Origin: Pomacea canaliculata
Lineage: Eukaryota
Reading direction: 5' to 3'
DNA length: 64,000 nucleotides
Assembly (NCBI RefSeq): GCF_003073045.1
Contig: NC_037593.1
Span: 29,329,367-29,393,366, forward strand
The notes under the pieces are model-generated. The model searched no databases. It had not been told where the DNA came from and was given only the letters and a program-made list of their open reading frames with translations. A program made the position numbers and the translations under genes. This document shows, one piece after another, positions 37,170 through 62,618 of this stretch (positions are counted from its first letter, which is position 1; every line of letters begins with the position of its first letter).

Positions 37170-37350
37170 TTACATGAACACACAAAAGATGATAAGACAG
37201 TCCTGTATATCTGACCTTTTAGATAACGAGAGATCGTTGTTCGTTGAACACCTACTCATGATAGCAACATTACAGAGCATGTTACCACATGATAGCAACA
37301 TTACAGAGCATGTTACCCCCATGATAGCAACAGTACAGAGGATGCTACCC
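37170..37350 (+). repeat. Dispersed repeat family, second copy at ~55905-56000
   Basis: 'cctgtatatctgaccttttagataacgagagatcgttgttcgttgaacacc..acagagcatgttacc' vs 55911 'gtgtatatctgaccttttagataacgagggttcattcttcgtgcaacacc..acagagcatattaccc'. Gives similar spurious ORFs (..CISDLLDNE..). Confidence 0.7.
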
Positions 37351-38255: not shown

Positions 38256-38502
38256 ATGGAGTCAGAAGTTGCCCAAACAACGCCAGCCACATCACGTGAC
38301 CTCTCTGCCCGCTATGGGACAACAGGAACTCTGACTTACCTCGGAGATGACCCCCGACCTTTCACCTATGTTCTCGACGGTTACGCCTGTATGCCGTTTG
38401 TTCCACCGACGCTGTCGACGACTTTAGATGTTCATATTGATAATCTCAAAAACATGCAGCTTCGGGATGATGACATGATAATATGTGCTTATCCTAAGGC
38501 AG
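38256..38502 (+). CDS. SULT-10 cytosolic sulfotransferase (subfamily II), coding exon 1 of 5
   Basis: ATG at 38256 'MESEVAQTTPATSRDLSARYGTTGTLTYLGDDPRPFTYVLDGYACMPFVPPTLSTTLDVHIDNLKNMQLRDDDMIICAYPKA(G)'. GTGGGT donor. Confidence 0.85.
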
Positions 38503-38988
38503 GTGGGTAAATTGGTAAAGCTAACCATCTCGATCCTTGAACCAACTCTAACACACAAACTACACACAAGCGAGCACGAGTAAATATACACACTTGTATC
38601 TCTCAAGCAGAACATCCTTCAGCCTTGAAGAAAGATTTCTTTAAAAGGTTTAAGATAATATTGATTAGGGTAACAAATAAATAATTAAACAATAGAACAA
38701 TTGATAGAGATCATATAAGGATTGGGGACCTTCTGTGATCTGGTTATCAGTGATTTCGATTGTTGACCAGAAAATCGCACGTTCGATACCGACTTCGGTC
38801 TGTTCCTTAAAAAAGCCTCGCCTATCAGGGGAAGTAAAAATAAGGAGTGGGGAGAACTTCATTTGTTGCCGTTGAGTCCACTTTACAATAGGACTCTGTA
38901 CTTCCCCTTTAATAAAGAAAATCAAAACCATAATAGTTATCGACGGAAGGAGAAATCTATGCTTTGTCTTCCCTTAATCATTTTTCAG

Positions 38989-39315
38989 GAACTCACTGGC
39001 TGTGGGAGGTGACCTCCATGTTGTTGCAGGGCAAGGCCGAGTATGACAGTCGCCCCAAGGAGGAACTCATGATGGAGTTCATTGACGTTGACAAACTGGA
39101 GAAAACACCTTCTCCCAGGATCCTCAACTCCCACCTGCCCTTCTACATGCTGCCATGGCAACAAATGAAGGGGAAACGAACAAAGATCCTATATGTGTAT
39201 CGAAATCCCAAAGATTCCTGTGTGTCCTTCTATCACCATATGAAAGCCTTTGATGAGGGTCCGATCCATGACATGGCATTCAACGATTTCTGCGAGTTAT
39301 TTTTCTTTGGAAAAT
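38989..39315 (+). CDS. SULT-10 coding exon 2
   Basis: 'tttttcag|GAACTCACTGG'. '(G)THWLWEVTSMLLQGKAEYDSRPKEELMMEFIDVDKLEKTPSPRILNSHLPFYMLPWQQMKGKRTKILYVYRNPKDSCVSFYHHMKAFDEGPIHDMAFNDFCELFFFGK(C)'. GTGGGT donor. 327 nt. Confidence 0.85.
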
Positions 39316-40043
39316 GTGGGTAACATATTTGTGTCTGTTTGGGGGGTTATTTTATTTTGTTTTGTTTCGTTTGTTGTTTTGTTTCGTTTTCTTTTTTTGT
39401 TAGTAGCCAAATTGTCAAGACTTCAATACAGTAAACAATAATTTATACATGTCATACTTATATATTTATTTATTGTTAACAAATCTCAATGAACCTCCTT
39501 AATGTATACTTAGCTGCTATTATTTCTTAAATTTCACAGTTAAAATTTTGCTGACTTCAAAGTTAATTTTTACTTTGTTTTGAGTCTTCCCTTTCGTAAA
39601 TTTAGTTTTTTTGATTCACGTAAAGTAAATTTTGAATAGAGTGATTAAACGTTTTGCTGTGCCTGATGGAAAATTCTTTTTTTTTTCCTAAGGTGTTCTT
39701 GCAAACCACTAATAATAAAAACGGAAAAATAGGAAAAGAAAAAAAAACAACCAAAACAACCAAACAACTTCTTTAAACATGTAATTTGAAAAAATATTTT
39801 AAATTTCAATTTTCTATTAAAGTTTTTGTCAGTGAATAAATATTCAGTTTCCTTTGATCTTAAACATTCTCTGGAATGCTCATTTGAAATGTTTGTGTAA
39901 ATTTTTGTTTATTTTGCCGATTTCAAGGGCATTAAAAAGAGAAAAACAAGGCAGAACTGTTTATTAAAAATGCTGATCACCTTCAAGATGTACATGTTGC
40001 ATAAAAGATAAAATTTATTTCATGCACAAAAATCTCATTTCAG

Positions 40044-40147
40044 TGCCATTCGACAACTACTTCTGGCACATGAAGCAGGTAACCACATTTGTAGAGGAGA
40101 ACCCCGACCTGCCAGTTCTGACTCTGTCGTTTGAAGACATGAAGAAG
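40044..40147 (+). CDS. SULT-10 coding exon 3
   Basis: 'ctcatttcag|TGCCATTCGACAACTAC'. '(x)PFDNYFWHMKQVTTFVEENPDLPVLTLSFEDMKK'. GTTGGT donor. 104 nt. Confidence 0.8.
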
Positions 40148-40318
40148 GTTGGTTCATATTTCACAGTCTACTTCAAATTATTCTTTCACAAAAATTCTGC
40201 CTTCAACATTCAACTCCAGTTTTAAGCAACAATCAAAAATATAAAGCGATGCAGATGTAGACGCTTTCTGATGCCCATTTTTTTAGTTCTCTTGAAGCCT
40301 TTTTTTGATTTATTTCAG

Positions 40319-40514
40319 AATCCCTTAGAAAATGTGAAACGTTTGGCCAAGTTTTTGGAACTGGATGTCGACGAACAGCTTTGTAAAGACATCACCGATG
40401 CCTGCAGCTTCAATAATTTGAAGAAAGGAGCTGCGCTGAAAAAAATCCCGCTTTCAATTTTAGAAATGGAAAATGCGGAGAAAAAACCTCCCCCTCTTGA
40501 ATTTTACCGAAAAG
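40319..40514 (+). CDS. SULT-10 coding exon 4
   Basis: 'tttatttcag|AATCCCTTAGAAAATGTG'. 'NPLENVKRLAKFLELDVDEQLCKDITDACSFNNLKKGAALKKIPLSILEMENAEKKPPPLEFYRK(G)'. GTCAGT donor. 196 nt. Confidence 0.8.
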
Positions 40515-40719
40515 GTCAGTTTTACTACTTGACAAAACTGTATAAATAAATGTATCAATCACAATGAGTCCTAGCATGTCTTGGAAGTCTCAGTGTGTGC
40601 GTGAGAGTACGCGCATCGGTTTAATATTTTTCACTGTCTCAAAAAGTCCATTTTTATTTATTTATTTACTTATGCAGCATTTTCACAAGTAAATAATGTA
40701 GTCTGTACTACATTTGCAG

Positions 40720-40829
40720 GAGAAATAGGAGACTGGAAAAACTATTTCACGGTGGCCATGAGCGAAAAAATGGACGGCGCCATTAAAGACCGGATGGAAG
40801 GACTTCCTTACGGCCTGCAGTACTCGTGA
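40720..40829 (+). CDS. SULT-10 coding exon 5
   Basis: 'catttgcag|GAGAAATAGGAGACTGG'. '(G)[35 protein letters not shown]'. TGA stop at 40827-40829. Exon sum 984 nt. Confidence 0.85.
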
Positions 40830-41340
40830 TGCCGGCCATGATGTTTTGTTTATTTACACAATCAGCTCCCTCTGCACCCAGATGTGTATTTCTAAGCGTT
40901 CAAAAACTGTCAGCCCTTTGACCTTTCAGACACAATTTAAGACACTGTAATGTATGATTATCCAACTACTGTCATATCAGAACTCTCATGTAATCAGAAA
41001 TATAATTCACACATATAATTATCATATATATCACACATATAATTATCCCTGTATAAAAGTCGTTCACTTTACAGAACCTACACAGGTGTGCGGCAATGGT
41101 TGGTGTGATCGAAAACAAACGTCGTCTTCTTTGATTTTTCAATAAAACTTTATTTATTTAGCAACGGTTTACTGAATAATGTGCTCGTGTTTGTGTAAAA
41201 AAAAATTTTACAGATTAATGTTACACCTTTACATCAATACAAATTAATATCAAAATATATATTACATCAACTAATAAGGAAGAAAAATATACAGATATAT
41301 ATATATTCAAGTGTCGATTCCCAAGTAGAGTCTAGTATCT

Positions 41341-44300
41341 CACTCACTCACTCACTCACTCACTCACTCACTCACTCACTCACTCACTCACTCACTCACT
41401 CACTCACTCACTCACTCACTCACTCACTCACTCACTCACTCACTCACTCACTCACTCACTCACTCACTCACTCACTCACTCACTCACTCACTCACTCACT
41501 CACTCACTCACTCACTCACTCACTCACTCACTCACTCACTCACTCACTCACTCACTCACTCACTCACTCACTCACTCACTCACTCACTCACTCACTCACT
41601 CACTCACTCACTCACTCACTCACTCACTCACTCACTCACTCACTCACTCACTCACTCACTCACTCACTCACTCACTCACTCACTCACTCACTCACTCACT
41701 CACTCACTCACTCACTCACTCACTCACTCACTCACTCACTCACTCACTCACTCACTCACTCACTCACTCACTCACTCACTCACTCACTCACTCACTCACT
41801 CACTCACTCACTCACTCACTCACTCACTCACTCACTCACTCACTCACTCACTCACTCACTCACTCACTCACTCACTCACTCACTCACTCACTCACTCACT
41901 CACTCACTCACTCACTCACTCACTCACTCACTCACTCACTCACTCACTCACTCACTCACTCACTCACTCACTCACTCACTCACTCACTCACTCACTCACT
42001 CACTCACTCACTCACTCACTCACTCACTCACTCACTCACTCACTCACTCACTCACTCACTCACTCACTCACTCACTCACTCACTCACTCACTCACTCACT
42101 CACTCACTCACTCACTCACTCACTCACTCACTCACTCACTCACTCACTCACTCACTCACTCACTCACTCACTCACTCACTCACTCACTCACTCACTCACT
42201 CACTCACTCACTCACTCACTCACTCACTCACTCACTCACTCACTCACTCACTCACTCACTCACTCACTCACTCACTCACTCACTCACTCACTCACTCACT
42301 CACTCACTCACTCACTCACTCACTCACTCACTCACTCACTCACTCACTCACTCACTCACTCACTCACTCACTCACTCACTCACTCACTCACTCACTCACT
42401 CACTCACTCACTCACTCACTCACTCACTCACTCACTCACTCACTCACTCACTCACTCACTCACTCACTCACTCACTCACTCACTCACTCACTCACTCACT
42501 CACTCACTCACTCACTCACTCACTCACTCACTCACTCACTCACTCACTCACTCACTCACTCACTCACTCACTCACTCACTCACTCACTCACTCACTCACT
42601 CACTCACTCACTCACTCACTCACTCACTCACTCACTCACTCACTCACTCACTCACTCACTCACTCACTCACTCACTCACTCACTCACTCACTCACTCACT
42701 CACTCACTCACTCACTCACTCACTCACTCACTCACTCACTCACTCACTCACTCACTCACTCACTCACTCACTCACTCACTCACTCACTCACTCACTCACT
42801 CACTCACTCACTCACTCACTCACTCACTCACTCACTCACTCACTCACTCACTCACTCACTCACTCACTCACTCACTCACTCACTCACTCACTCACTCACT
42901 CACTCACTCACTCACTCACTCACTCACTCACTCACTCACTCACTCACTCACTCACTCACTCACTCACTCACTCACTCACTCACTCACTCACTCACTCACT
43001 CACTCACTCACTCACTCACTCACTCACTCACTCACTCACTCACTCACTCACTCACTCACTCACTCACTCACTCACTCACTCACTCACTCACTCACTCACT
43101 CACTCACTCACTCACTCACTCACTCACTCACTCACTCACTCACTCACTCACTCACTCACTCACTCACTCACTCACTCACTCACTCACTCACTCACTCACT
43201 CACTCACTCACTCACTCACTCACTCACTCACTCACTCACTCACTCACTCACTCACTCACTCACTCACTCACTCACTCACTCACTCACTCACTCACTCACT
43301 CACTCACTCACTCACTCACTCACTCACTCACTCACTCACTCACTCACTCACTCACTCACTCACTCACTCACTCACTCACTCACTCACTCACTCACTCACT
43401 CACTCACTCACTCACTCACTCACTCACTCACTCACTCACTCACTCACTCACTCACTCACTCACTCACTCACTCACTCACTCACTCACTCACTCACTCACT
43501 CACTCACTCACTCACTCACTCACTCACTCACTCACTCACTCACTCACTCACTCACTCACTCACTCACTCACTCACTCACTCACTCACTCACTCACTCACT
43601 CACTCACTCACTCACTCACTCACTCACTCACTCACTCACTCACTCACTCACTCACTCACTCACTCACTCACTCACTCACTCACTCACTCACTCACTCACT
43701 CACTCACTCACTCACTCACTCACTCACTCACTCACTCACTCACTCACTCACTCACTCACTCACTCACTCACTCACTCACTCACTCACTCACTCACTCACT
43801 CACTCACTCACTCACTCACTCACTCACTCACTCACTCACTCACTCACTCACTCACTCACTCACTCACTCACTCACTCACTCACTCACTCACTCACTCACT
43901 CACTCACTCACTCACTCACTCACTCACTCACTCACTCACTCACTCACTCACTCACTCACTCACTCACTCACTCACTCACTCACTCACTCACTCACTCACT
44001 CACTCACTCACTCACTCACTCACTCACTCACTCACTCACTCACTCACTCACTCACTCACTCACTCACTCACTCACTCACTCACTCACTCACTCACTCACT
44101 CACTCACTCACTCACTCACTCACTCACTCACTCACTCACTCACTCACTCACTCACTCACTCACTCACTCACTCACTCACTCACTCACTCACTCACTCACT
44201 CACTCACTCACTCACTCACTCACTCACTCACTCACTCACTCACTCACTCACTCACTCACTCACTCACTCACTCACTCACTCACTCACTCACTCACTCACT

Positions 44301-47300
44301 CACTCACTCACTCACTCACTCACTCACTCACTCACTCACTCACTCACTCACTCACTCACTCACTCACTCACTCACTCACTCACTCACTCACTCACTCACT
44401 CACTCACTCACTCACTCACTCACTCACTCACTCACTCACTCACTCACTCACTCACTCACTCACTCACTCACTCACTCACTCACTCACTCACTCACTCACT
44501 CACTCACTCACTCACTCACTCACTCACTCACTCACTCACTCACTCACTCACTCACTCACTCACTCACTCACTCACTCACTCACTCACTCACTCACTCACT
44601 CACTCACTCACTCACTCACTCACTCACTCACTCACTCACTCACTCACTCACTCACTCACTCACTCACTCACTCACTCACTCACTCACTCACTCACTCACT
44701 CACTCACTCACTCACTCACTCACTCACTCACTCACTCACTCACTCACTCACTCACTCACTCACTCACTCACTCACTCACTCACTCACTCACTCACTCACT
44801 CACTCACTCACTCACTCACTCACTCACTCACTCACTCACTCACTCACTCACTCACTCACTCACTCACTCACTCACTCACTCACTCACTCACTCACTCACT
44901 CACTCACTCACTCACTCACTCACTCACTCACTCACTCACTCACTCACTCACTCACTCACTCACTCACTCACTCACTCACTCACTCACTCACTCACTCACT
45001 CACTCACTCACTCACTCACTCACTCACTCACTCACTCACTCACTCACTCACTCACTCACTCACTCACTCACTCACTCACTCACTCACTCACTCACTCACT
45101 CACTCACTCACTCACTCACTCACTCACTCACTCACTCACTCACTCACTCACTCACTCACTCACTCACTCACTCACTCACTCACTCACTCACTCACTCACT
45201 CACTCACTCACTCACTCACTCACTCACTCACTCACTCACTCACTCACTCACTCACTCACTCACTCACTCACTCACTCACTCACTCACTCACTCACTCACT
45301 CACTCACTCACTCACTCACTCACTCACTCACTCACTCACTCACTCACTCACTCACTCACTCACTCACTCACTCACTCACTCACTCACTCACTCACTCACT
45401 CACTCACTCACTCACTCACTCACTCACTCACTCACTCACTCACTCACTCACTCACTCACTCACTCACTCACTCACTCACTCACTCACTCACTCACTCACT
45501 CACTCACTCACTCACTCACTCACTCACTCACTCACTCACTCACTCACTCACTCACTCACTCACTCACTCACTCACTCACTCACTCACTCACTCACTCACT
45601 CACTCACTCACTCACTCACTCACTCACTCACTCACTCACTCACTCACTCACTCACTCACTCACTCACTCACTCACTCACTCACTCACTCACTCACTCACT
45701 CACTCACTCACTCACTCACTCACTCACTCACTCACTCACTCACTCACTCACTCACTCACTCACTCACTCACTCACTCACTCACTCACTCACTCACTCACT
45801 CACTCACTCACTCACTCACTCACTCACTCACTCACTCACTCACTCACTCACTCACTCACTCACTCACTCACTCACTCACTCACTCACTCACTCACTCACT
45901 CACTCACTCACTCACTCACTCACTCACTCACTCACTCACTCACTCACTCACTCACTCACTCACTCACTCACTCACTCACTCACTCACTCACTCACTCACT
46001 CACTCACTCACTCACTCACTCACTCACTCACTCACTCACTCACTCACTCACTCACTCACTCACTCACTCACTCACTCACTCACTCACTCACTCACTCACT
46101 CACTCACTCACTCACTCACTCACTCACTCACTCACTCACTCACTCACTCACTCACTCACTCACTCACTCACTCACTCACTCACTCACTCACTCACTCACT
46201 CACTCACTCACTCACTCACTCACTCACTCACTCACTCACTCACTCACTCACTCACTCACTCACTCACTCACTCACTCACTCACTCACTCACTCACTCACT
46301 CACTCACTCACTCACTCACTCACTCACTCACTCACTCACTCACTCACTCACTCACTCACTCACTCACTCACTCACTCACTCACTCACTCACTCACTCACT
46401 CACTCACTCACTCACTCACTCACTCACTCACTCACTCACTCACTCACTCACTCACTCACTCACTCACTCACTCACTCACTCACTCACTCACTCACTCACT
46501 CACTCACTCACTCACTCACTCACTCACTCACTCACTCACTCACTCACTCACTCACTCACTCACTCACTCACTCACTCACTCACTCACTCACTCACTCACT
46601 CACTCACTCACTCACTCACTCACTCACTCACTCACTCACTCACTCACTCACTCACTCACTCACTCACTCACTCACTCACTCACTCACTCACTCACTCACT
46701 CACTCACTCACTCACTCACTCACTCACTCACTCACTCACTCACTCACTCACTCACTCACTCACTCACTCACTCACTCACTCACTCACTCACTCACTCACT
46801 CACTCACTCACTCACTCACTCACTCACTCACTCACTCACTCACTCACTCACTCACTCACTCACTCACTCACTCACTCACTCACTCACTCACTCACTCACT
46901 CACTCACTCACTCACTCACTCACTCACTCACTCACTCACTCACTCACTCACTCACTCACTCACTCACTCACTCACTCACTCACTCACTCACTCACTCACT
47001 CACTCACTCACTCACTCACTCACTCACTCACTCACTCACTCACTCACTCACTCACTCACTCACTCACTCACTCACTCACTCACTCACTCACTCACTCACT
47101 CACTCACTCACTCACTCACTCACTCACTCACTCACTCACTCACTCACTCACTCACTCACTCACTCACTCACTCACTCACTCACTCACTCACTCACTCACT
47201 CACTCACTCACTCACTCACTCACTCACTCACTCACTCACTCACTCACTCACTCACTCACTCACTCACTCACTCACTCACTCACTCACTCACTCACTCACT

Positions 47301-49342
47301 CACTCACTCACTCACTCACTCACTCACTCACTCACTCACTCACTCACTCACTCACTCACTCACTCACTCACTCACTCACTCACTCACTCACTCACTCACT
47401 CACTCACTCACTCACTCACTCACTCACTCACTCACTCACTCACTCACTCACTCACTCACTCACTCACTCACTCACTCACTCACTCACTCACTCACTCACT
47501 CACTCACTCACTCACTCACTCACTCACTCACTCACTCACTCACTCACTCACTCACTCACTCACTCACTCACTCACTCACTCACTCACTCACTCACTCACT
47601 CACTCACTCACTCACTCACTCACTCACTCACTCACTCACTCACTCACTCACTCACTCACTCACTCACTCACTCACTCACTCACTCACTCACTCACTCACT
47701 CACTCACTCACTCACTCACTCACTCACTCACTCACTCACTCACTCACTCACTCACTCACTCACTCACTCACTCACTCACTCACTCACTCACTCACTCACT
47801 CACTCACTCACTCACTCACTCACTCACTCACTCACTCACTCACTCACTCACTCACTCACTCACTCACTCACTCACTCACTCACTCACTCACTCACTCACT
47901 CACTCACTCACTCACTCACTCACTCACTCACTCACTCACTCACTCACTCACTCACTCACTCACTCACTCACTCACTCACTCACTCACTCACTCACTCACT
48001 CACTCACTCACTCACTCACTCACTCACTCACTCACTCACTCACTCACTCACTCACTCACTCACTCACTCACTCACTCACTCACTCACTCACTCACTCACT
48101 CACTCACTCACTCACTCACTCACTCACTCACTCACTCACTCACTCACTCACTCACTCACTCACTCACTCACTCACTCACTCACTCACTCACTCACTCACT
48201 CACTCACTCACTCACTCACTCACTCACTCACTCACTCACTCACTCACTCACTCACTCACTCACTCACTCACTCACTCACTCACTCACTCACTCACTCACT
48301 CACTCACTCACTCACTCACTCACTCACTCACTCACTCACTCACTCACTCACTCACTCACTCACTCACTCACTCACTCACTCACTCACTCACTCACTCACT
48401 CACTCACTCACTCACTCACTCACTCACTCACTCACTCACTCACTCACTCACTCACTCACTCACTCACTCACTCACTCACTCACTCACTCACTCACTCACT
48501 CACTCACTCACTCACTCACTCACTCACTCACTCACTCACTCACTCACTCACTCACTCACTCACTCACTCACTCACTCACTCACTCACTCACTCACTCACT
48601 CACTCACTCACTCACTCACTCACTCACTCACTCACTCACTCACTCACTCACTCACTCACTCACTCACTCACTCACTCACTCACTCACTCACTCACTCACT
48701 CACTCACTCACTCACTCACTCACTCACTCACTCACTCACTCACTCACTCACTCACTCACTCACTCACTCACTCACTCACTCACTCACTCACTCACTCACT
48801 CACTCACTCACTCACTCACTCACTCACTCACTCACTCACTCACTCACTCACTCACTCACTCACTCACTCACTCACTCACTCACTCACTCACTCACTCACT
48901 CACTCACTCACTCACTCACTCACTCACTCACTCACTCACTCACTCACTCACTCACTCACTCACTCACTCACTCACTCACTCACTCACTCACTCACTCACT
49001 CACTCACTCACTCACTCACTCACTCACTCACTCACTCACTCACTCACTCACTCACTCACTCACTCACTCACTCACTCACTCACTCACTCACTCACTCACT
49101 CACTCACTCACTCACTCACTCACTCACTCACTCACTCACTCACTCACTCACTCACTCACTCACTCACTCACTCACTCACTCACTCACTCACTCACTCACT
49201 CACTCACTCACTCACTCACTCACTCACTCACTCACTCACTCACTCACTCACTCACTCACTCACTCACTCACTCACTCACTCACTCACTCACTCACTCACT
49301 CACTCACTCACTCACTCACTCACTCACTCACTCACTCACTCA
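41341..49342. repeat. Giant uninterrupted tetranucleotide microsatellite (CACT)n, ~8.0 kb, ~2000 units (AGTG on the opposite strand)
   Basis: Every 60-nt line from 41341 to 49320 reads cactcactca... with no variant base. The tract ends 'cactcactca|gacttttttt' at 49342 and begins after 'gtctagtatct' at 41340. Confidence 0.97.
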
Positions 49343-50300
49343 GACTTTTTTTATTTGTCACTGTCAGATTTGAACACACCACCTTTCAGTCTTCAGACCT
49401 CGTCTTTAGCCACCAGGCTATACAGCCGTTAGCAACTAACGTGCCTAAACTTCGTGAAAAAGTCAAGTTCGCCGTTTACAACAATCAACAAATCCGCTGA
49501 ACCGAGACGCACACGCCCAGAACCGGTGACGTCATCGACAACGAGGCTGCTGTTAACGAAGATGACTAGTGCACGACGGACCACAAACACCCTGCTACTG
49601 TCCCCCTAGGTCCCTCCAACTGCCAGGAACACACACGTCATACTCAATGGAGTGAACAAGATCGGAGTGACAGACGGCAACAACCTACCCGATCCTCTCC
49701 CCTCCAGACATCATTGTACGCGTGGTCAGAGTTGCCTGCCCAGTCAATGGAGGACATCGAAAACGGACAGCAGTACCCTACAAAGAACACCAACAAGAAA
49801 TAAGTGACAAGATGGCCCGGCCCTCCACAGTTCATGACAATTGCTATCCCATAATGTCGAGGACTGTGTGTGGACGGCAAGACACAATCAAGACAAGGGA
49901 GAGAATAAGTTTCACTGACCCAGTGACTACGCGACACGAGGTGTCCGTGCTAACGGTCACCAGGACACAGCACGGGACTCACCCGTGAAAATATTTCACA
50001 TCTTCAACTGCGACATCGACGGTTTGCTCGTGAAAACACACTATCCTGGCTTTGTACAAAGCATTAACGTGTTTGTTATTGTGTCTTACAGACATTGCTT
50101 GACGTCAGCAGTACACTGCAATGTTTCTCTGACTTCCAACGATACTTCAGTCCTGCTTCTACACTTACATCGCAAGGAAGAGCTGCCGGCCGATATCCTT
50201 GTTTTAGTAAAAAATGTATTTAATAAGTTTTTGCATAGACTGCAGTGTACGGTTGACAATTTTATTTTATTGCAATTTGACACCGAGTTTAACGAGACAA

Positions 50301-51293
50301 GTAGTTTACTGGCATGGACTCCTGTAGCCTACTGGCCGAAGTGGCTCATCATGTCTAGAGTACGCCCCGTGGAAAGCGGAATCAAAGCTTTCCCTCCTCC
50401 ACATTTACATCTGTAAGCTTTGTGTGTGTGTGTGGGTGCGTGCGTGCGTGGATGAGAGAGAGAGAGGGTGTGTGTGTTCTAGAGAGTGAGCGTTCTCTCT
50501 CTCTTTCAAGTCTCACTGGAGGGGTGCACGCATGTGTGTGTAAGAAAGAGCAAGATCACATTAAAAGAAATCCGTGATGACGCTCAATAAATAAATAACT
50601 AAATCATTATTCACCTTTCGATTTGTAACCGCATAAAATTCTAGAATGTGGAAAGGGATGGACTGCGGGTCAGCATTCATATGAAGACTGTTTTTCTACT
50701 CTCACCATCATGACAAGTGATCACTTGTTAGGATTTTCGAAACAAGTGAGATCACATCAGAGTTTGAAAAATATCAGTCTCATCAAAATAACCGACCTGA
50801 GGTCACTTGTAGGCGGCCATCTGGATGCACATCAAACACATGAACAGATGGCTGGCTTTATGCTTACAAACACTACCTGATGGAACATTACATGTGGAAA
50901 CACAGTGGCTAGTCAAGCAGCTAGTCCATCATGCCTTTGGCTTGAGTTTGTACTGAGCAACGCAAGCACTCGTAACCAAGCTAGCTATGTGCTAGCATAA
51001 TGCTTGGCATGGCCAGGATGAACAGACAAACAAACAAGCTAGCTATGTTCTAGCATAATGCTAGGCATGGCCAGGGTGAACAGACAAACAAACAAGCTAG
51101 CTATGTGCTAGCATAATGATTGGCATGGCCAGGGTGAACAGATAAACATGAATAAATGAGCGAAGTAGTTTACTGGCATGGACTCCTGTAGCCTACTGGC
51201 CGAAGTGGCTCATCATGTCTAGAGTACGTCCCGTGGAAAGCGGAATCAAAGCTTTCCCTCCGCCACATTTACATCTGTAAGCTTTAAATAGCT
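50301..51293. repeat. Two ~128-bp direct repeats (50301-50428 and 51166-51293) flanking a ~60-bp x3 tandem minisatellite (50940-51140) and (TG)n/(GA)n tracts
   Basis: 'agtagtttactggcatggactcctgtagcctactggccgaagtggctcatcatgtctagagtacg(c/t)cccgtggaaagcggaatcaaagctttccctcc(t/g)ccacatttacatctgtaagcttt' occurs twice. Between them, 'caagctagctatgtgctagcataatgcttggcatggccagggtgaacagacaaacaaa' repeats three times. Confidence 0.8.
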
Positions 51294-51649
51294 CCTTATA
51301 AATCAGGTAGCCACTTTTATTTTTACTGAAAAGAATGAGCAGGATGGAGAGTGGGGGGGGTGGGGAAGCAGAATCCTATCCACAGGCCACAAACCAGTGA
51401 CCATATGCAGTAACTTCCGAACACGAAGTCTACCCTTATTCTAAGGGGTGACTAATACATTTACTTTTGCATTATCCTAACATAAAAAATTCCATTTAAA
51501 ATGAAAGAAAAACTGGATAAAAAATAAAAATACGTTAAATGAACAATGTCAGTGACACTAACTCAGATGAAGTGATGATCCAGACATTTTAGAGTTGGCT
51601 AATATCGATGCAGTCTTGGCTTGCATCACATTAGAATGCTAAATTTTGA

Positions 51650-52350
51650 TTGCCGAGGTAGTCACGTGACCGTGGTGACGGGCCTGGCGACCTACCCGTC
51701 GTAAAATATGCGGCGTTCAATCGGAGCGCCAGTTGAGAAGGTGAAGAAATGGGTGATTTACCAGTCGACACACCACGTGACCTATCAGACGCGCGCGCAG
51801 CAATCAGCGGAAGGGGGTAGGGGTTCGGTTACCAATTAGGTCGGGAGTGCCGGCGATTAGCTGCCGAGCCTTGCACCTTGGCCCAGTGGGCCGCGGGCGG
51901 ACGCAAGTCAAACAAGTGTGCCGCGCGAGGACCGCGCCAGTGCACGTGCGACGCGTGGCGACACGGTGCGCCTAATGAGGCGGTCAGCCTCGTGCCGCGA
52001 GGGGCGCCCGTGCACCAGACCTGACGTAGGGCTGTTGTGCGGCGTCAAAGTTGCAGCAGCTCGTCGAACGCCGCCGACCTCGGGTCCGAGTCCCCCGATG
52101 TACCACTCCCGTGCACCCACCAGCCTCAAACATCCTCAATAGCCTCCCCTGGCAAAAGAGAAGTGGTGCGCGGGAAAATGACACGCCGGAAGTGGCATGA
52201 AAGTGATGGCGCCTTCACACACCAGTTGGCAATCATTGACTAGGTTACCGCAGCTTATTCTTCCATTGTCGGAGCAAACCAGCGAGCAGTTTGCCCTCGC
52301 CCCCCGCTTCTGTCAGACTGTAGAGCGGGACCCACATCTGTGTGCGCGCG
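51650..52350. other. CpG-rich, GC-rich island-like segment (~700 bp) without a convincing ORF. Candidate CpG-island promoter or non-coding locus.
   Basis: Dense CG dinucleotides, e.g. 'gccgcgggcggacgcaagtcaaacaagtgtgccgcgcgaggaccgcgccagtgcacgtgcgacgcgtggcgacacggtgcgcc..cgtcgaacgccgccgacctcgggtccgag'. Includes GTCACGTGAC at 51661-51670 and CACGTG at 51774. Both strands carry only overlapping ~70-aa ORFs typical of GC-rich noise. Confidence 0.5.
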
Positions 52351-53040
52351 TGCGAGAGAGAAAGAAGGATAATCGTGAAGGAGTGAATAAAACTTACATT
52401 TGAGAAACACCTCCAAGAAAAGACAAACGTATAGTTCAGAATAAACGCAAAAATAAAAACGGTATCTTGAGAGAATGTCGATGCTAGATATCAGATATCA
52501 GATATAAATTATAGCAAATTGTATTGAAACAGATTTTCAATGGTGTGAAGAGACACGCTGGTCATTAGTGTCAAAGTGTCAAATGATACAGTAAATTATT
52601 TAACACCTACATACAGCAAGGTACACGACAGTAAACCCAGACATTATTGTGACTGTCTGTGGTAAAGTTTGTTTTAAATATACATTATTTTTTCATAAAA
52701 TAAGTAAACTATAAGCTAAACTACATCGTCCTCGTCATGTGTCATTTTAAAATTTGGACTGACATGTAGATGTTAAATTGTTACATATTTTTAAAAAGTT
52801 GATTTTGTCAGAGCTTTCTAGCATCAATGCTGTTAAATTACAATAGATAAGTTGATGTGTTTGGCAAAATATGTCGGACTTCTCTATTATATTTTATGTG
52901 AGATATGTTTGCCACATTCCACAGCTGGTCCATGCACAAAAAAACAAATTCCAAATTTCCGAACCCACAGTCCGAACACTTCCACTGTCACACACATCTT
53001 ATGTTCTTCCGACATTCAATTCCCCCTCCCCCCTAAAAAA

Positions 53041-53270
53041 AATCTCCAGTTGAAAATGACACCAAGTCTCCACTTGAATATAACACCAAGTTTCCACTTC
53101 TAGGTAACACAAATATGTCCACTTGAATATAACACCAAGTCTCCACTTGAATATAACACAAAGTTTCCACTTCTAGGTAACACAAATATGTCCACTTGAA
53201 TATAACACAAAGTTTCCACTTCTAGGTAACACAAATATGTCCACTTGAAAGTAACACAAAGTTTTCACTG
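53041..53270. repeat. Minisatellite, ~22-24 bp unit x ~9-10
   Basis: Alternating units 'ccacttgaatataacaccaagtct' / 'ccacttctaggtaacacaaatatgt' repeated in tandem. Confidence 0.8.
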
Positions 53271-55634
53271 ACACCGATGCTCTTCCTGAAGTTATTTCTA
53301 ATTCAGCTCTGGTTGGTGAGCCCGAGGCGGATACGATGAATAAGCGAAGATCAAACAACAAAAGTGAGAAAAAAAAAACCCACAAAAACCTGGAGAAAAA
53401 AAGTCTTTTGCTAAATGGCAAGTTCAAAACTTAACTAACATTCTTCAAACATTAAACACACGCTCACCGAACAATCAACAAAGATACACACTCACCTCCA
53501 AGATACAAATCTGGTCAGGATGTGCCCAGTCCAGTCAAGGCTAACTTCAATTCTGTTCAGGACTTGTTAAATAACACAATCTGGTCAGGATGTGCACAGT
53601 CGGTCAGGACTACAACACCAAGTCGGTTCAAGACTTGTTGCAAACAAACTGATGACACACTGATGACACCGAGGAGACTGTTACTTCTCCCGCCCGTCAA
53701 GGAAAAACTCACACAACAACATCCCAAACACTCAAACACTCTTTCCTTTGTTCTTCGAACAAAACAACCTATCAACACCAGTTGATTAAAAAAAAAAAAA
53801 AACAACAACAAAAAAACAAAGCCCGGCCGGCCATCCCTGTGTGGCGCGCACTCAGACAGTATTGCTGTCTTTCAACCTCCCCTTCCAGTTACTTTTTCCC
53901 TGTCTCCTTCCTAGCTCAAAAAAAAAAAAAAAAAAAAAAACATTAAAAAATATAGCGCAGCAGGTTTGTGACATACCTCAATCTCATTTATTATTACTTT
54001 CTTTGTTTAAACGTCTGGTCAAACAGATTTCTCAAATCATGAAGTGGAGTCATATCTGGCGTCCTGTCGGTAGAGGTTGTTGCTACTAATCCACTGAAAG
54101 ACTTTGCAGCTTACATATCTTGTATTATTTAATTTTAACATAATGATTATCTAAAATTGGAACTTTTGTAGTTAAAAATAATTTTTGTGCATCAACACTC
54201 TGGCCAAACAGACACACAACAACAAAAAAAAAGAAAAAAAGAAAACAATGTCTAAACTTTTGACATAAAGGCACGAGAGTGAGTAGTGTTCATGGAGTGG
54301 TGAAATACTAAATTAAGGATGAATGAAAACGGTCCAGCTGATATTCAGTCTGCATCAAACCTTTAAATGTCATGTCAACATCATCTTGTGTGATAATGTA
54401 TGTGGACTGCCACTTGTTTGGCAGTAACAAGTTGGTTATTTAACTAATAAGCTTTGTCCGTCAATGGAGAAGCAGCCAGAGACATTGGTGTGGAAGGAAT
54501 GTGCCATGTCGCATTATGTAAAAAATACTGTCATGTTTGAAATGAGTGTAATGGCGAAGCCTGCAAGGAAAAATAACTTTGGTACACGGGAAATGGCCAA
54601 AAGCAGCTTTACATGTAGGATCATCGAAACACAAATCATTTCCGGTCAGTAGGTCGCGCACGATTCTCCATTGGGTGTGGGAGCCCCTCACAGGGTGCAA
54701 ACGTACCCACTCTTTGGTTTGAGATCATAAAGCATTCTTGTAGTGACGATCATATAATAAATCGTGCTCGAAAGGCAAGTTAATGGATGAGTTTCTCATG
54801 ACAATGGCCAACATGCAAATTTCTCTGTTAGGATCAAGTTAATTATACATCTACAGAGGTTTTCTCTCAGTGATTCTTTAATTGTGTGGAGGACGTTTGC
54901 GATTGGTTTGTGGCTGTCGAACCTTTGCAGTCAGATGTTCCGAAATGTTTGTAAAGGAGACATGCAGGACATATAAGTCACAGGGCAGAGACATTCATTT
55001 TGTCCTTTTCAGTTCGGAAAAGAATTACCTGCAGCTGATATAAATTACATCAAGCCTTATGAAACTGATATAAAGCCTTGTGGTTACTACTTCATAGCAG
55101 CTCTCAGTTCCACGTTCGCTTGGCCCAGTGACAAGAAAAAGCTCTTCTAGGAGCCTAGAGCCAGTAAACCACTCACAGTTAGCCCACTCAATGTATCATC
55201 ATCGTTATTTCCTAAGATAGCAGTTTCATAATCCACTTACCGGAAATTGGTCATGAAGCCTTTGTTGAAGCGAGACATTCGATGAGATAAAATCTGAGAA
55301 GAAGGGGAACTGCCAGGGTCGAGACTGGAACTGTTTTCCCGTCAGACAATGTTTCAAAGTACAGCACCCTTTCCTTTCTTTAGCAACCAGTAGGTGAGAC
55401 AAACACAAATGTTTAGCTTAGTCTCGGGATTTTTTCTAAACCGAGTATATTTGACGGCGCCATCGTTAGGACAACAAGGAAAGGACTTTCTTTGAAGTTA
55501 TAAGTTATCGGTAGCCGTGAGATCAGATCCCGTCCCCAACACACCTTTTTTTTTTTTTTTTTTTTACCTTCTTTTCCGTACTCCCACCCGGCTAGCCTCT
55601 TGGTGACAAATTATGGGTAATGATCAGTAATGCA

Positions 55635-55880
55635 GTGGCGTAGGAAGATGTTCGGCGTTGGGGGGGGGCAAATTCCCTGCTGACAGTGAACGGCGTTCGC
55701 ACTCGCACGGTGATGACCGTCTCCTCTCTACGTTCCCCTACCTTTCTTCTGTTCTTTGCTCTTTGTGAGGAATTACGTCTCAAATATTGGGGGGGCAAAA
55801 GGATATTCCTGCCCCCCCCCCTGTATTTTCCTTGGGGGGGGGGCGGCTGCCCCCGCTGCCCCCCTGGTTCCTACGCCACT
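55635..55880. repeat. Perfect 14-bp inverted repeat (cagtggcgtaggaa / ttcctacgccactg) bracketing ~220 bp that contains G9-10 and C9-10 homopolymer runs. A T25 run lies immediately 5' at 55546-55570.
   Basis: 'cagtggcgtaggaagatgttcggcgttgggggggggcaaattccctgctgacag ... ggggggcaaaaggatattcctgcccccccccctgtattttccttggggggggggcggctgcccccgctgcccccctggttcctacgccactg'. Confidence 0.75.
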
Positions 55881-57699
55881 GTATCTTCGAAGATGCTTTC
55901 AAAACGTTTGTGTATATCTGACCTTTTAGATAACGAGGGTTCATTCTTCGTGCAACACCATATATATACTAGAAACTTTACAGAGCATATTACCCACAGC
56001 ACAGAGCTAATGACAGTTCATCGTCCCTACTAGGGTCGTCGCTCTCCACATGTTCAGCCAACTAGAATACAATAACACAAATACATACACACACTCGCGC
56101 GCGAAGGCCGTACACACAGGTGGTTTCCGGGGTCACAGGGGAGGTAATCCGCGGTGACGTCACGGGGCTACTAGCACGTGCTGCTGAGAACTGAACCAAA
56201 CCACGTCGATTCCGGAATGGTCCTGGGAGGCGATTCCAGGAGGCTCCAATTCTTCAGCCCATACACTTAAAACCTGTAACTCGAGGTTACACTATACTAA
56301 TTCTCCAATTCTCACATCTTGTTCTCTTATGTTAATGACTCGAAACCTGCATTATATCCATTACAATTTCACAAAAAAATGGCATTAATACGATTCGAAA
56401 GAATTTAGACAGACGAAAATAGACGCGTATCCACGTTATGCAGATTCTGAAATCCGTTGTTCAATGCAATGCAAGTGGGTAAAAAAAAGTCTACTTTTTT
56501 ACTCTTTTTTTTTTTTTTCGAGTTGGCCTCATCTTTCCCAGTATGAGCTGCTTATTCTCCGCTGATGAAGTTTTCGTTTTGTGCCGCTCAGACGCTTGTT
56601 TAAAGGTCGGACTGAACTGAGAGCATTTGAAGCAGGGAGGTAACTGCGCGCTCACGACGTACAAGAGATTACGGCCCTTTCACTAAAAAAAATTACTTCA
56701 CAAACTCTAGGATTTTAAAATCTGGGGCTGCCTGAACGCTAATCATCTGGAATTCGATAGTATTAGGAGAAATTTGTACTGTGCTAAATTACGCTAAGAT
56801 TAATCTTTTTTAAAATGATAATGTGCTAGCCCATTCACCTGAGATTCTATATTCTATATATTTGGCATTGTCGCTTGACTTTCCTAGAGACTGCTAAAGG
56901 TTTGGGCTGCGTGTGTGCTCTGGAATGTCAGTCCGGGGGCTGGGGCATTAACAAATGGCTAAAAACTATCAGGTATTGTCTGGGTGGCTTCGTCTCCCTA
57001 ATTTGTGACTAAATAGTACAGTTAGCAACATCACTAATTAACATTAATGAAACGTCACCAGCTATCTCTTAAAATTATTTTATTTATCATGGTATTTTAG
57101 TAAAACAGAAAACAAGACACTTTAATGAAAAGTTCGCAAAATAATTAAGTCTGAAGACGTACTGTGAATATAGTTTTTTTTTTAATCCATTAACTTTTAT
57201 ATGTCCACGCGGCATGATGGCCCAGCCCTGTCCACGCAGCGAATCGGCATGAGAAGGCAGGGCGGGGAGTCGGACTAGCTTCACCACTGGGCAAGGATGG
57301 CTGATGGCTGATGGTAAGAGGAGGGTTGGCTTAACGAGAACTGCCGAGGTCGCTGACGTCACGCTCCCGAAGGCTCCCAAAGTTTTTCCCTTCACTGAGA
57401 CCTTTATTTAAAAAATTCAGCTCCCGGGGATGAGTAATTTTCCGCAATTCTTTCCGGCCAAAACCTACTGGTGAACTGTCTTCACTAAGCACTTTCTGTC
57501 TCAGTTAACCCTTTCCTATCTAAGGTTTACATACATTCAACATATACGTTAGTCCCTGAGCCACCAAAGGGTTAAACACTCCGTAAAACACGGGAGGCAA
57601 GACTGGTCCCTGACAATGAACTTCTATGTATTTTATTACTGGCGCTACACTTTAGTCTCTATGGACTGAAACACACAGAAGTAGTCAGACTGCATCACG

Positions 57700-58760
57700 T
57701 GTGGAGGATCAACCAGACCATCTTATCTGACGTCCCATCTGTCATCGACAGCCACTGCCAGCAGATGCAGGATCATCGATTAAAAACTTGTCCATTCTTC
57801 GAGTGATCAATACAGAGCTTTTAGCAAGATCAACTTTGGATGGACTTTAACAGCTTTCTTATCTGCTAGTTGATAACGGCTCGCAGTTTGTATGTCATCT
57901 CGCCTCTGCCTGTCTGTCCATTGCTAACAGAAGAATTACAGCTATCAGGTTGTGTCCAGTATGTCAGAGTTTTCCCTTCACATGTCGTCTGCTCCATGTT
58001 CTACATTTTGGCCTGTAGACAAGTATGTTTTCATCACCTCCGCTCGAAACCGATACATGCCTCGTTTCTAAGTAAGGCTGTGAAATAGTTGCTGACATGG
58101 TGTAAGACTCCAATTAACTAACCTACAATTAGGCATTGCCACCTGTGGGTCTCTCTCTCTCTTGTGTGTGCATACTTAGTGTTTTGGTAAACATCTAGGA
58201 GAAAATTGTAGTTAAGAGAATAAAACCGAGGCCTGACACAAAGGTCCCATCTGTCATTGCGAACAGATATCAGATTATCTATTAAAATCTTTCTCATTTC
58301 AGTGTGATCAGTGCTGAACTTGAAGTAAGATCCCTATTGGATCGATTCTTGCATCGTTCTTAGCTGCTAGCTGATAAAGGTTTTTTCTGTGTTCGCGTAC
58401 GCCATACACTGTTAAGGCGTCTGGAAAAGGAGTGGTCACGTGACATTACTTTTTTTGTTTTCTCTCGTAATTTGTTGCTGGAGCCGGCCGGTTGTTTGTA
58501 AATTCTTTTTAGTACAAATCTTGATTGATCTTTCTCTCAATAACCTTCGTAGCCTCTTTCATCATTACAAGAAATTTTTTTTTTAATTTTTAAAAAAACT
58601 AACAACCGGTTAATTATGCAATCATTCTATACTAAGAAACGTCAGAGCTTCCCTAAACGATGGTAAAGGACACCGGCTCCTGGACTATCCAGTAAAGAGA
58701 GACAAAATGTTAATCATATATAAATTTCTCAGAATTGTCACTAAGTAAAATTGTTCAAGA
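57700..58760. repeat. Internally tandem-duplicated intergenic block (sub-units ~57700-58100 and ~58250-58760). It is a paralogous copy of the SULT-11 5' flank and intron-1 region (60560-62040), including a promoter-like segment with GTCACGTGAC at 58435-58444
   Basis: 'ggagtggtcacgtgacattactttttttgttttctctcgtaatttgttgctggagccggccggttgtttg' (58431-) vs 'ggagtggtcatgtgacagcattttttttctcttttctcccttcttgcgctggccgcttgtttg' (61691-). 'ggacaccggctcctggactatccagtaaagagagacaaaatgttaatcatatataaatttctcagaattgtcactaagta' (58671-) vs 'ggacgccggctcatgaaccctccagtatagggagacacaatgtgaatcatagacaaatttctcagagttgttgctaagta' (61941-). 'tttcttatctgctagttgataacggct' motifs recur at 57861, 58361 and 60661. Confidence 0.7.
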
Positions 58761-58850
58761 GTCACCAGGCTGAGCTGAGTCGTTGCTATGCCAACTTGTT
58801 CAACGAGTAAAGGTGTGTCCGCTTAGCAAATGTTGAGATAACTGTGAGTT

Positions 58851-58960
58851 TCACGAATACTGTATGACATAGGGCAGGTCTTTCAACTCTTTCTCCACGA
58901 CTGCGTCCATCTGCTCGCTCATGGCCACAGTAAGATAGTTCTTCCAGTCGCCCACCTCTC
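58851..58960 (-). CDS. SULT-11 coding exon 5
   Basis: 'gttccag|GAGAGGTGGGCGACTGG'. '(G)[35 protein letters not shown]'. TGA stop at 58851-58853. Exon sum ~921 nt. Confidence 0.8.
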
Positions 58961-59175
58961 CTGGAACACAAACATACAAAGATTCATTACATCAGGTAGA
59001 TGATAAATCAAACAGGACTTTTTTCTTCATTTTGGATGATATGTTGAAAAATTTATGTCTCGCCATATTGTAACACACTGAGGAAGGTTATTTTTAAAAT
59101 ACCGACAGTCTTCAAAATTTGTCCTTTTTACCATAGTGTGATAGCATTGACAAGTAGCACAATATCCATAATTAC

Positions 59176-60223: not shown

Positions 60224-61300
60224 CTGACCAACAGATATGGACACAGAGTGAGTTGTTGACTAACAAAGATGGACACGCCTAATTAATTCGACATACCGCA
60301 AAATGGGGTTCATATCTCCCACAATAGCCATCTGTCGCAGTCTTGGTCAATGTAACAGGTTAACAATAGTCCTTCCCTCCACAGCAAAAGTTTCTTTTAA
60401 TCACTGAAGATTTCCATGCATACAACCTCAGCTCCATCTCATTGAAGTGAGGGAGGGATCCAAGGGTTAAATTTGTTAATTTTAAAGAGTGGATCTTTTG
60501 TATAAAGAATTTTTTTTTTATTTTGAAGGAATTGGTGGCTGTCAACTATGTGAGGTTCAGTCCTTGCGAGCAGACGGCTGCCATGTCGATTTAAAGCTTG
60601 CCCGTTGTATTTGTGATTGATGCAGATATAGGAACTTTTAAACAAGATTCTAAAGCCAAAACCTTTCTTATCTGATAGTTGATAAAGGCTTTCTTGCACA
60701 CCCACGTGTGTGTGGTGGTGGTGGTGGTGGTAGGAGACAGGTACAGCCATTATGTCCTGCCCCACTTTGCCAGAGCTTTGAAGTACAAGCCGTCTGCTCC
60801 ATGTTCTACATTTTGACCTGTTCATGAAATGTTTTTATTACCCCACCTTCTGATCTTTTCTGGCGTGTTTCATCAGAAAGGCATTACCATTTGTGATTTT
60901 GCTCTCTCTCTCTCCCTCCTTCTCGTGTATGTGTGTATGAATATTTAGGCCCTCGTTATATTTTTAATCAAGAACAAGGGGTGTGCTTATCAAATGAGTT
61001 CGTGCAAACAAGTGTTTGCCAGCAAGCATTCGTGTAAAGGTGAGAAAAATGTGAGGCAATTGTTAGAACTACAGCGAGTAAATCTGCTGAACAGCAGTGG
61101 TCGTGGGTTACCAAATTAAACCTCAGCCTCTTTCTGATCATAGTCAGACGTCTCTCACCTTATTCTGATATCTGTTATTTCCCCCATCAACCTGAGTCCT
61201 ATCTCTCTCTCTCTCTGACCTCTTTCACATCACATCATACTTCACATCAATCTCATCCCTCTCACTACAGTCTGACCCCTCTCAGAGTCGGACATCTTAC

Positions 61301-61502
61301 CTGTTTTGGGGTAGGTACACAGCAGGATGTCATCGTGTCGAAGCTCCATGTTGCGCAGATCATCGATGTGTTTCTCCCACTCCTCTTTGTTAAATCGGAA
61401 ACTGGGCAGAGGAATACCTTCTACCAGCCAGTAAATTGGATCAAGCTTGCCATCTTTCTCGTTTTCCATCTTGAAAGAGCTGTTGTGTTCCTGGCTTGTC
61501 AT
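61301..61502 (-). CDS. SULT-11 cytosolic sulfotransferase (subfamily III), coding exon 1 of 5
   Basis: Probable ATG at ~61502 (minus) 'MTSQEHNSSFKMENEKDGKLDPIYWLVEGIPLPSFRFNKEEWEKHIDDLRNMELRHDDILLCTYPKT(G)'. GTAAGA donor. The ORF track extends upstream to ~61559 with a non-ATG start, so the start is uncertain by 1-2 nt and up to 57 nt. Confidence 0.65.
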
Positions 61503-61696
61503 TCCACCTGAAGCAACGGTCGGGACTGCACTGACAGCGACGAAATTATCTAGTGTCACGCTTATGTTTGTTTAACAATTTACCTCTGGGAGACCCTTTA
61601 AATATTTTCTTTCGTCTGCTATCGGCAGTGTCTGTCCTGTGACTGCTGAAGGCCGTGCGAGAGCATTTTTATAGGTGTCAAGTTATGGGAGGAGTG

Positions 61697-61706
61697 GTCA
61701 TGTGAC
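61697..61706 (-). promoter_or_regulatory. E-box variant GTCATGTGAC ~140-200 bp upstream of the SULT-11 start
   Basis: 'ggagtggtcatgtgacagc'. Its duplicated paralogous copy at 58435 carries the perfect palindrome GTCACGTGAC. Confidence 0.4.
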
Positions 61707-62618
61707 AGCATTTTTTTTCTCTTTTCTCCCTTCTTGCGCTGGCCGCTTGTTTGTTATTTATGCGACAAACCTTGACTGGTTTAAGCCAGTGGATTTAGCA
61801 ATAGCGAAAAACATGGGGGAATAAAATCATAAACCTGCTTTGTAGTAAGCGGTCTCATTTCTCTTTCAAACACCTTCTTGACCCTTTTCATTACTATTAT
61901 TGAAATAAATGTTCTTCAGTACTAAAAAAAAAAAAAAAACGGACGCCGGCTCATGAACCCTCCAGTATAGGGAGACACAATGTGAATCATAGACAAATTT
62001 CTCAGAGTTGTTGCTAAGTAGTTTGCGCCTCTAAAATCTCATTACCATGAGATGAACAGGGTTATTATGTCCTTCACTTTTAACTAGATATGAAGGAAAA
62101 AGGCAAGAGACTGAGGCTATGATCGAGAACTGCCACACTCTGAGCAAGAAGTAATTTGAAAAAAAAATTGAAAAAAACTAGACAAGACCCACATATCTTC
62201 AAGCTGGTCAGAATATATTATCCCGTTCAATTCATATTCAATGTTGACCAAAAATTCAACATACACTCCATCTTATAAAGTATTTGTGTGTATGTGTGTG
62301 TGTGCGCTAGTTAACTCCATACCGTTTGTTCCATCCTAATGAAATTTTACAGAGGTTCCTCTTTTGTCTATGGAAAGGTCTCAGGCCGTTTTAAATCTTA
62401 ATTTTACTTCTTACAAATCTTAAATTGTGGAGTTTCACACAAAGGCCACTTATTCACTATGTTCATATTTCACAGCCATGTAGATTGTAGATTAATTGTG
62501 GTAAAGGTGGATCATACAGATCAATGTAGGTATAGTGTAGGTATGTTTATGTGTAACTAATTACACTTGTTAACGAAGCATACATAAATATCAAAAGGTA
62601 TATCCTATCAATCGTTAT

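Follow-up and report, generated by a model that had tools for sequence, protein, structure and literature searches.

Vertebrate SULT1, CYP and olfactory-receptor clusters are dense tandem arrays of paralogues in mixed orientation, and the spacers of birth-and-death arrays of this kind carry exon-less relics of the 5' flank of a further unit, dispersed repeats and indel polymorphism. A similar arrangement is found in a 64,000-nucleotide stretch of the genome of Pomacea canaliculata (golden apple snail; assembly GCF_003073045.1, contig NC_037593.1, positions 29,329,367 to 29,393,366 of the forward strand; hereafter the window, with position 1 as its first letter), which contains 11 cytosolic sulfotransferase (SULT) genes in a tandem array; the block studied here (49343-58850) sits in the gap where SULT-10 and SULT-11 converge with their 3' ends. 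The locus differs from other array-type spacers in that the SULT-10/SULT-11 gap is 18 kb long, whereas the remaining spacers of the array measure 0.9-3.5 kb, and in that almost half of this gap is a single perfect tetranucleotide array, (CACT)n. With a probability that we put at roughly 60%, the block is a four-part non-coding spacer (segments A to D) between convergent SULT genes of a birth-and-death array, in which segment B is polymorphic, low-copy repeated DNA.

Parts of the block also resemble other described systems. Structural variants produced by microhomology-mediated repair likewise have shared flanks (98-99.5% identity here) around unrelated sequences (4,590 and 699 bp here) and imperfect homologies at the junctions; the variant at this locus differs from simple indels in that it is a replacement rather than presence or absence of one sequence, whose probable direction was read from a single related copy and which is probably allelic. 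Orphan CpG islands share with the CpG-dense core of segment B their length, GC content and CpG observed/expected ratio (o/e), CpG-depleted flanks and promoter-type E-box palindromes, but the core is polymorphic in its presence and part of a duplicated segment. Methylation in invertebrates is mosaic and centred on gene bodies, and the vertebrate concept of CpG islands transfers loosely to them. Clusters of cyclic-AMP response elements (CREs) for CREB/ATF consist of perfect 8-bp palindromes, and the block contains four of these, two of them conserved in all sampled haplotypes; unlike bound CRE clusters, these putative sites lie away from annotated start sites.

Segment A, from the microsatellite edge to 50302, was recovered at 98.1-99.2% identity in all of 14 short-read Logan contigs from 14 runs (SRR34434911-36, SRR34705511, SRR23454731, SRR31200879, SRR31200912). 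Beyond 50302 all 14 contigs carry, in place of segment B, an unrelated 699-bp segment that has no match anywhere in the window (breakpoints mapped against contig L011), and the reference junction is present in none of the 14; seven contigs span both junctions and continue into 54892-55299 at 98-99.5% identity. Independent samples have, that is, the same flanks with different sequence between them (seven at both junctions, 14 at the left one). The flanks diverge from the window by 0.7-1.3%, inside the range of 1-2% heterozygosity reported for P. canaliculata (PMC6129957), and one contig begins within the (CACT)n array; both observations speak for an allele. An exhaustive phmmer search with the longest open reading frame (ORF) of the block (49919-50413) retrieved as its only relatives near-identical Pomacea sequences, namely a cluster of four 141-aa ORFs from Logan contigs and PVD29904.1. 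The ORF at the junction is on record in its alternative type on 15 contigs; of the reference type, which is equally long and should be equally callable by the gene finder, a homology search of a collection of 5.8 billion proteins found none. The contigs probably represent an allelic or orthologous form of the locus, because a second copy should also yield the reference junction in the same genomes.

Segments A and C would then be an older spacer that is common to all sampled haplotypes and bears the four CRE palindromes, and segment B a structurally polymorphic 4.6 kb of low-copy repeated DNA, including inserts that appear to be poly(A)-tailed. Most of what made the block conspicuous lies in segment B, namely the 131-bp direct repeats, the two minisatellites, the A-runs and the CpG-dense core. 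A preliminary description, made from the letters of the window, had taken the block for a repeat-rich composite and possibly a degraded transposon; it is indeed a mosaic of pieces with different histories, whose central 4.6 kb varies in presence or absence, but a transposon was not demonstrated.

PVD29904.1 (P0083) is the hypothetical protein C0Q70_09161 (130 aa) of P. canaliculata, encoded on a scaffold of 34,494,602 bp; the SULT genes are on a scaffold of 34,737,321 bp. The first pieces of C0Q70_09161 match segment A, more closely in the form of the alternative contigs than in that of the reference; the middle piece is identical (47/47) to a stretch that joins the end of segment A to the first 29 codons of the 699-bp segment, and the last 26 residues, encoded by its last exon, equal the left edge of the core (51657-51733) save for a 1-bp indel; a 699-type piece and the core are therefore both present at that locus, in that order. 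C0Q70_09161 is built on spacer-related sequence and a protein homology search found no homologue outside Pomacea, so that the model is probably spurious, lying on a duplicated stretch of non-coding DNA, the same repeat as in the block.

The order of pieces at C0Q70_09161 makes A-699-B-C the simplest candidate for the ancestral layout of the spacer, of which a duplicate would have been placed on another chromosome. The reference allele would have lost the 699 bp via the microhomology AACGAGACAAGT / AATGAGCGAAGT, and the common allele would have lost segment B via the microhomology GTGAG / GTGGAGG; both events were presumably losses. The reference junction falls within the 12-bp motif AACGAGACAAGT, which recurs as AATGAGCGAAGT ahead of the second 131-bp repeat, and the junction of the common allele shows the motif GTGAG/GTGGAGG.

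Segment D comprises three pieces that are colinear with the 5' flank and intron 1 of SULT-11 (60558-62020). The non-coding homology to flank and intron runs in the same order as in a SULT unit; Sulfotransfer_1 exon sequence is absent, the coding first exon being missing and no exon remnant being detected by tblastn or by a SULT profile hidden Markov model (HMM). By this homology, segment D is what is left of the 5' end of an additional SULT unit, into which the 3' untranslated region (UTR) of SULT-11 probably extends. On the minus strand, an ATTAAA signal at 58582, 272 nt past the SULT-11 stop codon, suggests that the rightmost 290 bp or so of the block are SULT-11 3' UTR. A sequence of about 180 bp was found in three copies (57700-57920, 58215-58420 and 60520-60730; mean column identity 70%), two at the right end of the block and one in SULT-11 intron 1, all with CTGCTAG(C/T)TGATAA; it could be a small dispersed repeat rather than purely paralogous flank.

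The block gives no coding signal and is probably not a hidden gene. As the preliminary description had stated, there are no SULT exons: tblastn with SULT-11 gave one chance match (E=1.2), and the profile HMM (60 sequences), run over 537 six-frame ORFs, gave a best E of 2; in the positive control it detected all five SULT-11 exons at E values of 1e-14 to 1e-52. The three ORFs listed in that description were found where it had placed them and belong to no recognisable family, a Pfam search being empty; the ten longest ORFs of the block contain no Pfam domain. The longest stop-to-stop ORF in the block has 165 codons, and simulated sequence of the same composition yields 137 +/- 22 codons and reaches 165 in 10.7% of cases. 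Rfam returned nothing at gathering thresholds and chance-level matches only at E <= 10. Exact look-ups of window ORFs with M starts and of two ATG ORFs, a test of low sensitivity, found none on record. All ORFs of at least 60 aa, concatenated (3,428 aa) and searched against 5.8 billion proteins, gave no match; this result was not used, since the search missed P0082, a protein of that collection that is 95% identical to one of the joined ORFs, and long concatenated queries can thus yield false negatives in protein homology searches. The GenBank locus tags on either side of the block (C0Q70_08306 and C0Q70_08307) are consecutive, and therefore no annotated protein gene lies between them; with chance-like ORF lengths and no family, the suggestion of an unannotated protein gene is unsupported.

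The block had also been called compositionally distinct, which holds for the core and the first kilobase but not for the block overall: its GC content is 0.430 and its CpG o/e 0.77, compared with 0.392 and 0.68 in the rest of the window, and other SULT spacers reach a GC content of 0.436. The CpG-dense segment of about 700 bp that had been pointed out (the core, 51650-52350; CpG o/e 1.07, 61.6% GC) is real and is the CpG maximum of the window (57 CpGs per 500 bp; median 12, next best 33). It qualifies as a CpG island by the definitions of Takai-Jones (>=500 bp, GC >=55%, CpG o/e >=0.65) and Gardiner-Garden (>=200 bp, GC >=50%, o/e >=0.6). The core owes its CpG richness either to an unmethylated (promoter-like) past or to the youth of the repeated segment, and this richness does not mark a gene that is needed at the SULT-10/SULT-11 locus. 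A bacterial or other foreign origin of this GC-rich sequence was considered and is unsupported; Rfam and exact ORF look-ups were empty, and its edge recurs at the second Pomacea locus.

The four TGACGTCA (CRE) palindromes reported for the block, and the one elsewhere in the window, were all found, within 10 bp or less of the positions given for them. The four sites in the block compare with 0.15 expected (Poisson P=1.9e-5), and of the 256 palindromic 8-mers TGACGTCA has the top rank (about 0.005 when corrected for their number); the enrichment would fail a correction over all 8-mers and holds only with the test limited to palindromes. Segment B is free of such sites, all four being in the older segments A and C, and wherever a contig covers the two of segment A they are preserved. 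Three of the four share the extended form G(G/C)TGACGTCA. A repeat common to the four sites was rejected, as their flanks are unrelated except for CG(G/C)TGACGTCACG at two.

A second palindrome, TCACGTGA, has 12 copies in the window with about 0.8 expected; ten are outside the block (0.61 expected, P~1e-9), nine of these preceding the first coding exon of a SULT gene by 140-1,720 bp, and two are inside it, at the left edge of the core (51662) and in the SULT-flank relic (58436). CACGTG outside the block is likewise more frequent (33) than expected (6.3). Given that TCACGTGA is found mostly upstream of SULT genes and that the remaining CpG-rich peaks of the window coincide with SULT 5' ends, it is plausible that these palindromes are promoter-type elements in this genome; TCACGTGA is a candidate for a shared regulatory motif of the SULT array and, as a mark of SULT upstream regions, could be a real regulatory lead. 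The copy of TCACGTGA at 38292 falls within the annotated N-terminal coding sequence of SULT-10. SULT-3, -4 and -5 have a conserved module, gTCACGTGActg..ggttgaagatg.ag..cagt.

Repeats and homopolymer runs contribute much of the remaining structure of the block. The direct repeats around a minisatellite are present as described, but are 131 bp long instead of 128 bp; they enclose GT/GA low-complexity sequence and a minisatellite of three 58-bp units (50977-51148), and the first 12 bp of the first copy are the end of segment A. The second minisatellite was likewise confirmed, with a period of 24 bp instead of 22 bp. The long A/T runs were also correctly noted, four of the seven A/T runs of at least 12 nt in the window being in the block; the region around two of these has ATTAAAAAA on either side and may be a small insert, about 150 bp long, with a poly(A) tail. 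The inverted repeat with G/C homopolymers proved to have arms of 17 nt that are 94% complementary and 221 nt apart, with runs of G9, C10 and G10 within the element; for the 14-mer of its arm, two matches were reached in 3 of 100 shuffles, and no further copy of the arm was found within the window. With terminal inverted repeats on a short non-coding element, its sequence looks like that of a miniature inverted-repeat transposable element (MITE), but without a target-site duplication, since its flanks match neither as TA nor as an 8-bp duplication.

The core, alone or together with the CRE and E-box patches, might instead be a live, unmethylated promoter of an unannotated non-coding RNA, on the reference haplotype and in the copy on the other scaffold. 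Such a promoter would fit its CpG-island character amid strongly CpG-depleted DNA on both sides (o/e 0.33-0.5), the position of the other CpG-rich peaks at SULT 5' ends, and the presence of TCACGTGA and TGACGTCA in real SULT upstream regions as well (e.g. 16259, 16550, 16732); a GTCACGTGAC site at the edge of the core is followed 40 bp downstream by a TAAAATAT stretch, and AATAAA motifs occur after the core at about 52.39 and 52.44 kb. However, the core is missing from 14 of 14 other sampled haplotypes, so that it is dispensable at this locus and the earlier idea of a long non-coding RNA is weakened. Comparison of the core and the CRE patches with the SULT upstream regions gave noise only and no homology to any SULT promoter, no Rfam family matches the core, and the sole gene model that touches its relative is an uncharacterised 130-aa prediction without homologues outside Pomacea; we regard this explanation as unlikely. 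The block is flanked by two converging 3' ends and is therefore a promoter for neither SULT-10 nor SULT-11. It is highly improbable that the whole spacer is a regulatory module of the SULT array, to which segments A and C would contribute clustered bZIP (CRE/Maf-type) and E-box (GTCACGTGAC) palindromes and segment B a CpG-island promoter of variable presence; such a module would alter the expression of neighbouring detoxification genes and would make the structural variant of this invasive and stress-tolerant snail a functional polymorphism.

Mobile DNA and faulty assembly would account for segment B in other ways. Mollusc Helentron-related elements carry microsatellites and tandem repeats, and the block, or segments A and B, might be a transposable element of a non-autonomous kind, whether a large MITE, an element of Helitron/Helentron type with tandem repeats and a tetranucleotide microsatellite, or one resembling a terminal-repeat retrotransposon in miniature, with full and internally deleted copies as the two alleles. 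The modular content of microsatellite, tandem repeats, direct repeats and 17-nt inverted repeat speaks for this, as do the at least two genomic copies (this locus and C0Q70_09161) and a recent burst of hAT DNA transposons in the species (PMC6129957). However, none of the boundaries tested showed terminal repeats or a target-site duplication: no repeat is common to the two ends of segment B (best local score 8-9), and comparison of the block with itself gave internal repeats only. The ORFs tested against Pfam provide no transposase, reverse-transcriptase or helicase domain, and there is no tRNA-like head; heads of tRNA-derived short interspersed nuclear elements, considered for 49350-49440 (minus strand) and for the 131-bp repeats, were rejected, as neither ARAGORN, even in relaxed mode, nor Rfam, run on the short stretches at E <= 10, returned a tRNA. 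The known loci number only two, and within the window only the 84-bp dispersed repeat has another copy, no other piece of the block having a second one; the genome as a whole is repeat-poor (11.4%; PMC6129957). A transposable element is thus also an improbable source of the block. An assembly artefact, in which paralogous or other-haplotype sequence was misjoined beside the 8-kb microsatellite in the PacBio/smartdenovo reference, would explain why the reference junction is in no other sample and why the core edge and the copy on the other scaffold have identical protein-level sequence; the assembled animal was 1-2% heterozygous, with alternative contigs removed afterwards (PMC6129957), and there is a perfect repeat of 8,004 bp at a distance of 1 kb. 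Against this, locus-specific sequence is found on either side of segment B within one contig and the consensus derives from 55x long-read coverage; the left junction is inside a 131-bp repeat whose second copy lies within B, and both junctions show microhomology, which looks more like biology than like a chimeric read. We consider a misassembly quite unlikely.

For the reading as a polymorphic non-coding spacer, in which the block would probably be without function, several points weigh on the other side. The analysis covered a single 64-kb window of the genome, and copy number, which bears on transposon status, was judged within it, so that a low-copy non-autonomous element is possible. No contig reaches a SULT gene, since they stop in the (CACT)n array to the left (L001) and at 55299 to the right; instead of an allele, the contigs could represent a paralogous copy of very recent origin, and the 14 runs were taken without distinguishing DNA from RNA or the population or species of Pomacea. 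The proposed ancestral layout is built on one spliced gene model. Finally, the four perfect CRE palindromes and two GTCACGTGAC sites in the block exceed chance and these motifs are also found in SULT promoter regions, which leaves some room for a regulatory role of A, C or the core and for some relic or cryptic regulatory activity. If the block is a polymorphic spacer, its biological weight is small, the pattern of an island plus palindromes being that of an ordinary spacer, a gene relic and a haplotype-variable segment; the difference of 4.6 kb versus 0.7 kb between the reference and 14 samples, beside an 8-kb perfect microsatellite, calls for care with the reference at this place. The positions of all features are collected in Table 1.

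Table 1. Features of the SULT-10/SULT-11 spacer and related sites, in window coordinates.
Feature	Position	Strand	Description
SULT-10 3' end	40826	plus	
(CACT)n microsatellite	41339-49342		2001 perfect units, 8,004 bp, 100% identity
Segment A	49343-50302		old spacer beside (CACT)n; two TGACGTCA sites, chance ORFs 49644-49937(-) and 49985-50416(+)
Segment B	50303-54892		4,590 bp, reference only
Segment C	54893-57748		old spacer; T20, T14, inverted-repeat element, dispersed repeat, CpG patch, two TGACGTCA sites
Segment D	57749-58853	minus	decayed, exon-less copy of 5' part of SULT unit
Segment D piece	58665-58747		with 61938-62020, 82%
Segment D piece	58428-58527		with 61690-61778, 70%
Segment D piece	57749-58078		with 60558-60882, 62%
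GGTCACGTGACA	58436		in segment D
SULT-11 3' end	58854	minus	
ORFs of the preliminary description	49644-49937; 49985-50416; 57087-57395	minus; plus; minus	
CpG-dense core	51650-52350		701 bp, GC 0.616, CpG o/e 1.07, 71 CpGs
GTCACGTGAC	51661-51670		left edge of core
Further CACGTG sites	51774, 51943		in core
Second CpG-rich patch	56001-56700		o/e 1.12, in segment C
131-bp direct repeats	50291-50421, 51155-51285	plus	96% identical
Second minisatellite	53038-53269	plus	period 24 bp, 9.5 copies, 49/73-bp higher-order units
A/T runs in block	53788-53802, 53918-53940, 55546-55565, 56505-56518		A15, A23, T20, T14
A-run region	53783-53950	plus	ATTAAAAAA on either side
Inverted-repeat element	55630-55884		255 bp; arms 55630-55646 (ATGCAGTGGCGTAGGAA) and 55868-55884 (TTCCTACGCCACTGTAT)
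Short dispersed repeat	55911-55994	plus	84 bp, 82% identity to 37204-37286 (SULT-9/SULT-10 spacer)
TGACGTCA (CRE) in block	49527-49534, 50100-50107, 56155-56162, 57354-57361		
TGACGTCA outside block	16732		
TCACGTGA palindromes	2193, 2376, 6275, 8573, 11041, 16259, 16550, 28809, 30358, 38292, 51662, 58436		
P0002 match to SULT-11 last exon	58857-58961	minus	final residue L, not S

The (CACT)n array that borders the block has a right-hand edge that is real, because contig L001, from another sample, starts inside the same array; its length and perfection in the reference may in part be due to consensus polishing. The genome of P. canaliculata contains 873,801 bp of tandem repeats in 440 Mb (PMC6129957), and the 8,004 bp of this array equal about 0.9% of the tandem repeats reported genome-wide.

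At 99% identity, the SULT-11 gene model (minus-strand exons, 61469-58854) corresponds to hypothetical protein C0Q70_08307 of P. canaliculata, and the ten other paralogues of the window match further sulfotransferases of this species. A search of the literature on the run accessions, or on SULT genes or methylation at the SULT-10/SULT-11 locus, found nothing relevant. The GenBank model C0Q70_08306 (P0023; SULT-10, 38256-40826) terminates in '...FYRKGQFYYLTKLYK' and is without the canonical last exon of SULT-10 (40719-40826), so that it probably reads through the splice donor. The RefSeq model P0002, a protein of 371 aa named 'sulfotransferase family cytosolic 1B member 1-like', agrees with the SULT-11 last exon at 35 of 35 residues but has a different final residue, and none of its remaining exons was found at >=95% identity within the window; P0002 is either a near-identical twelfth SULT beyond the window or a chimeric gene model.

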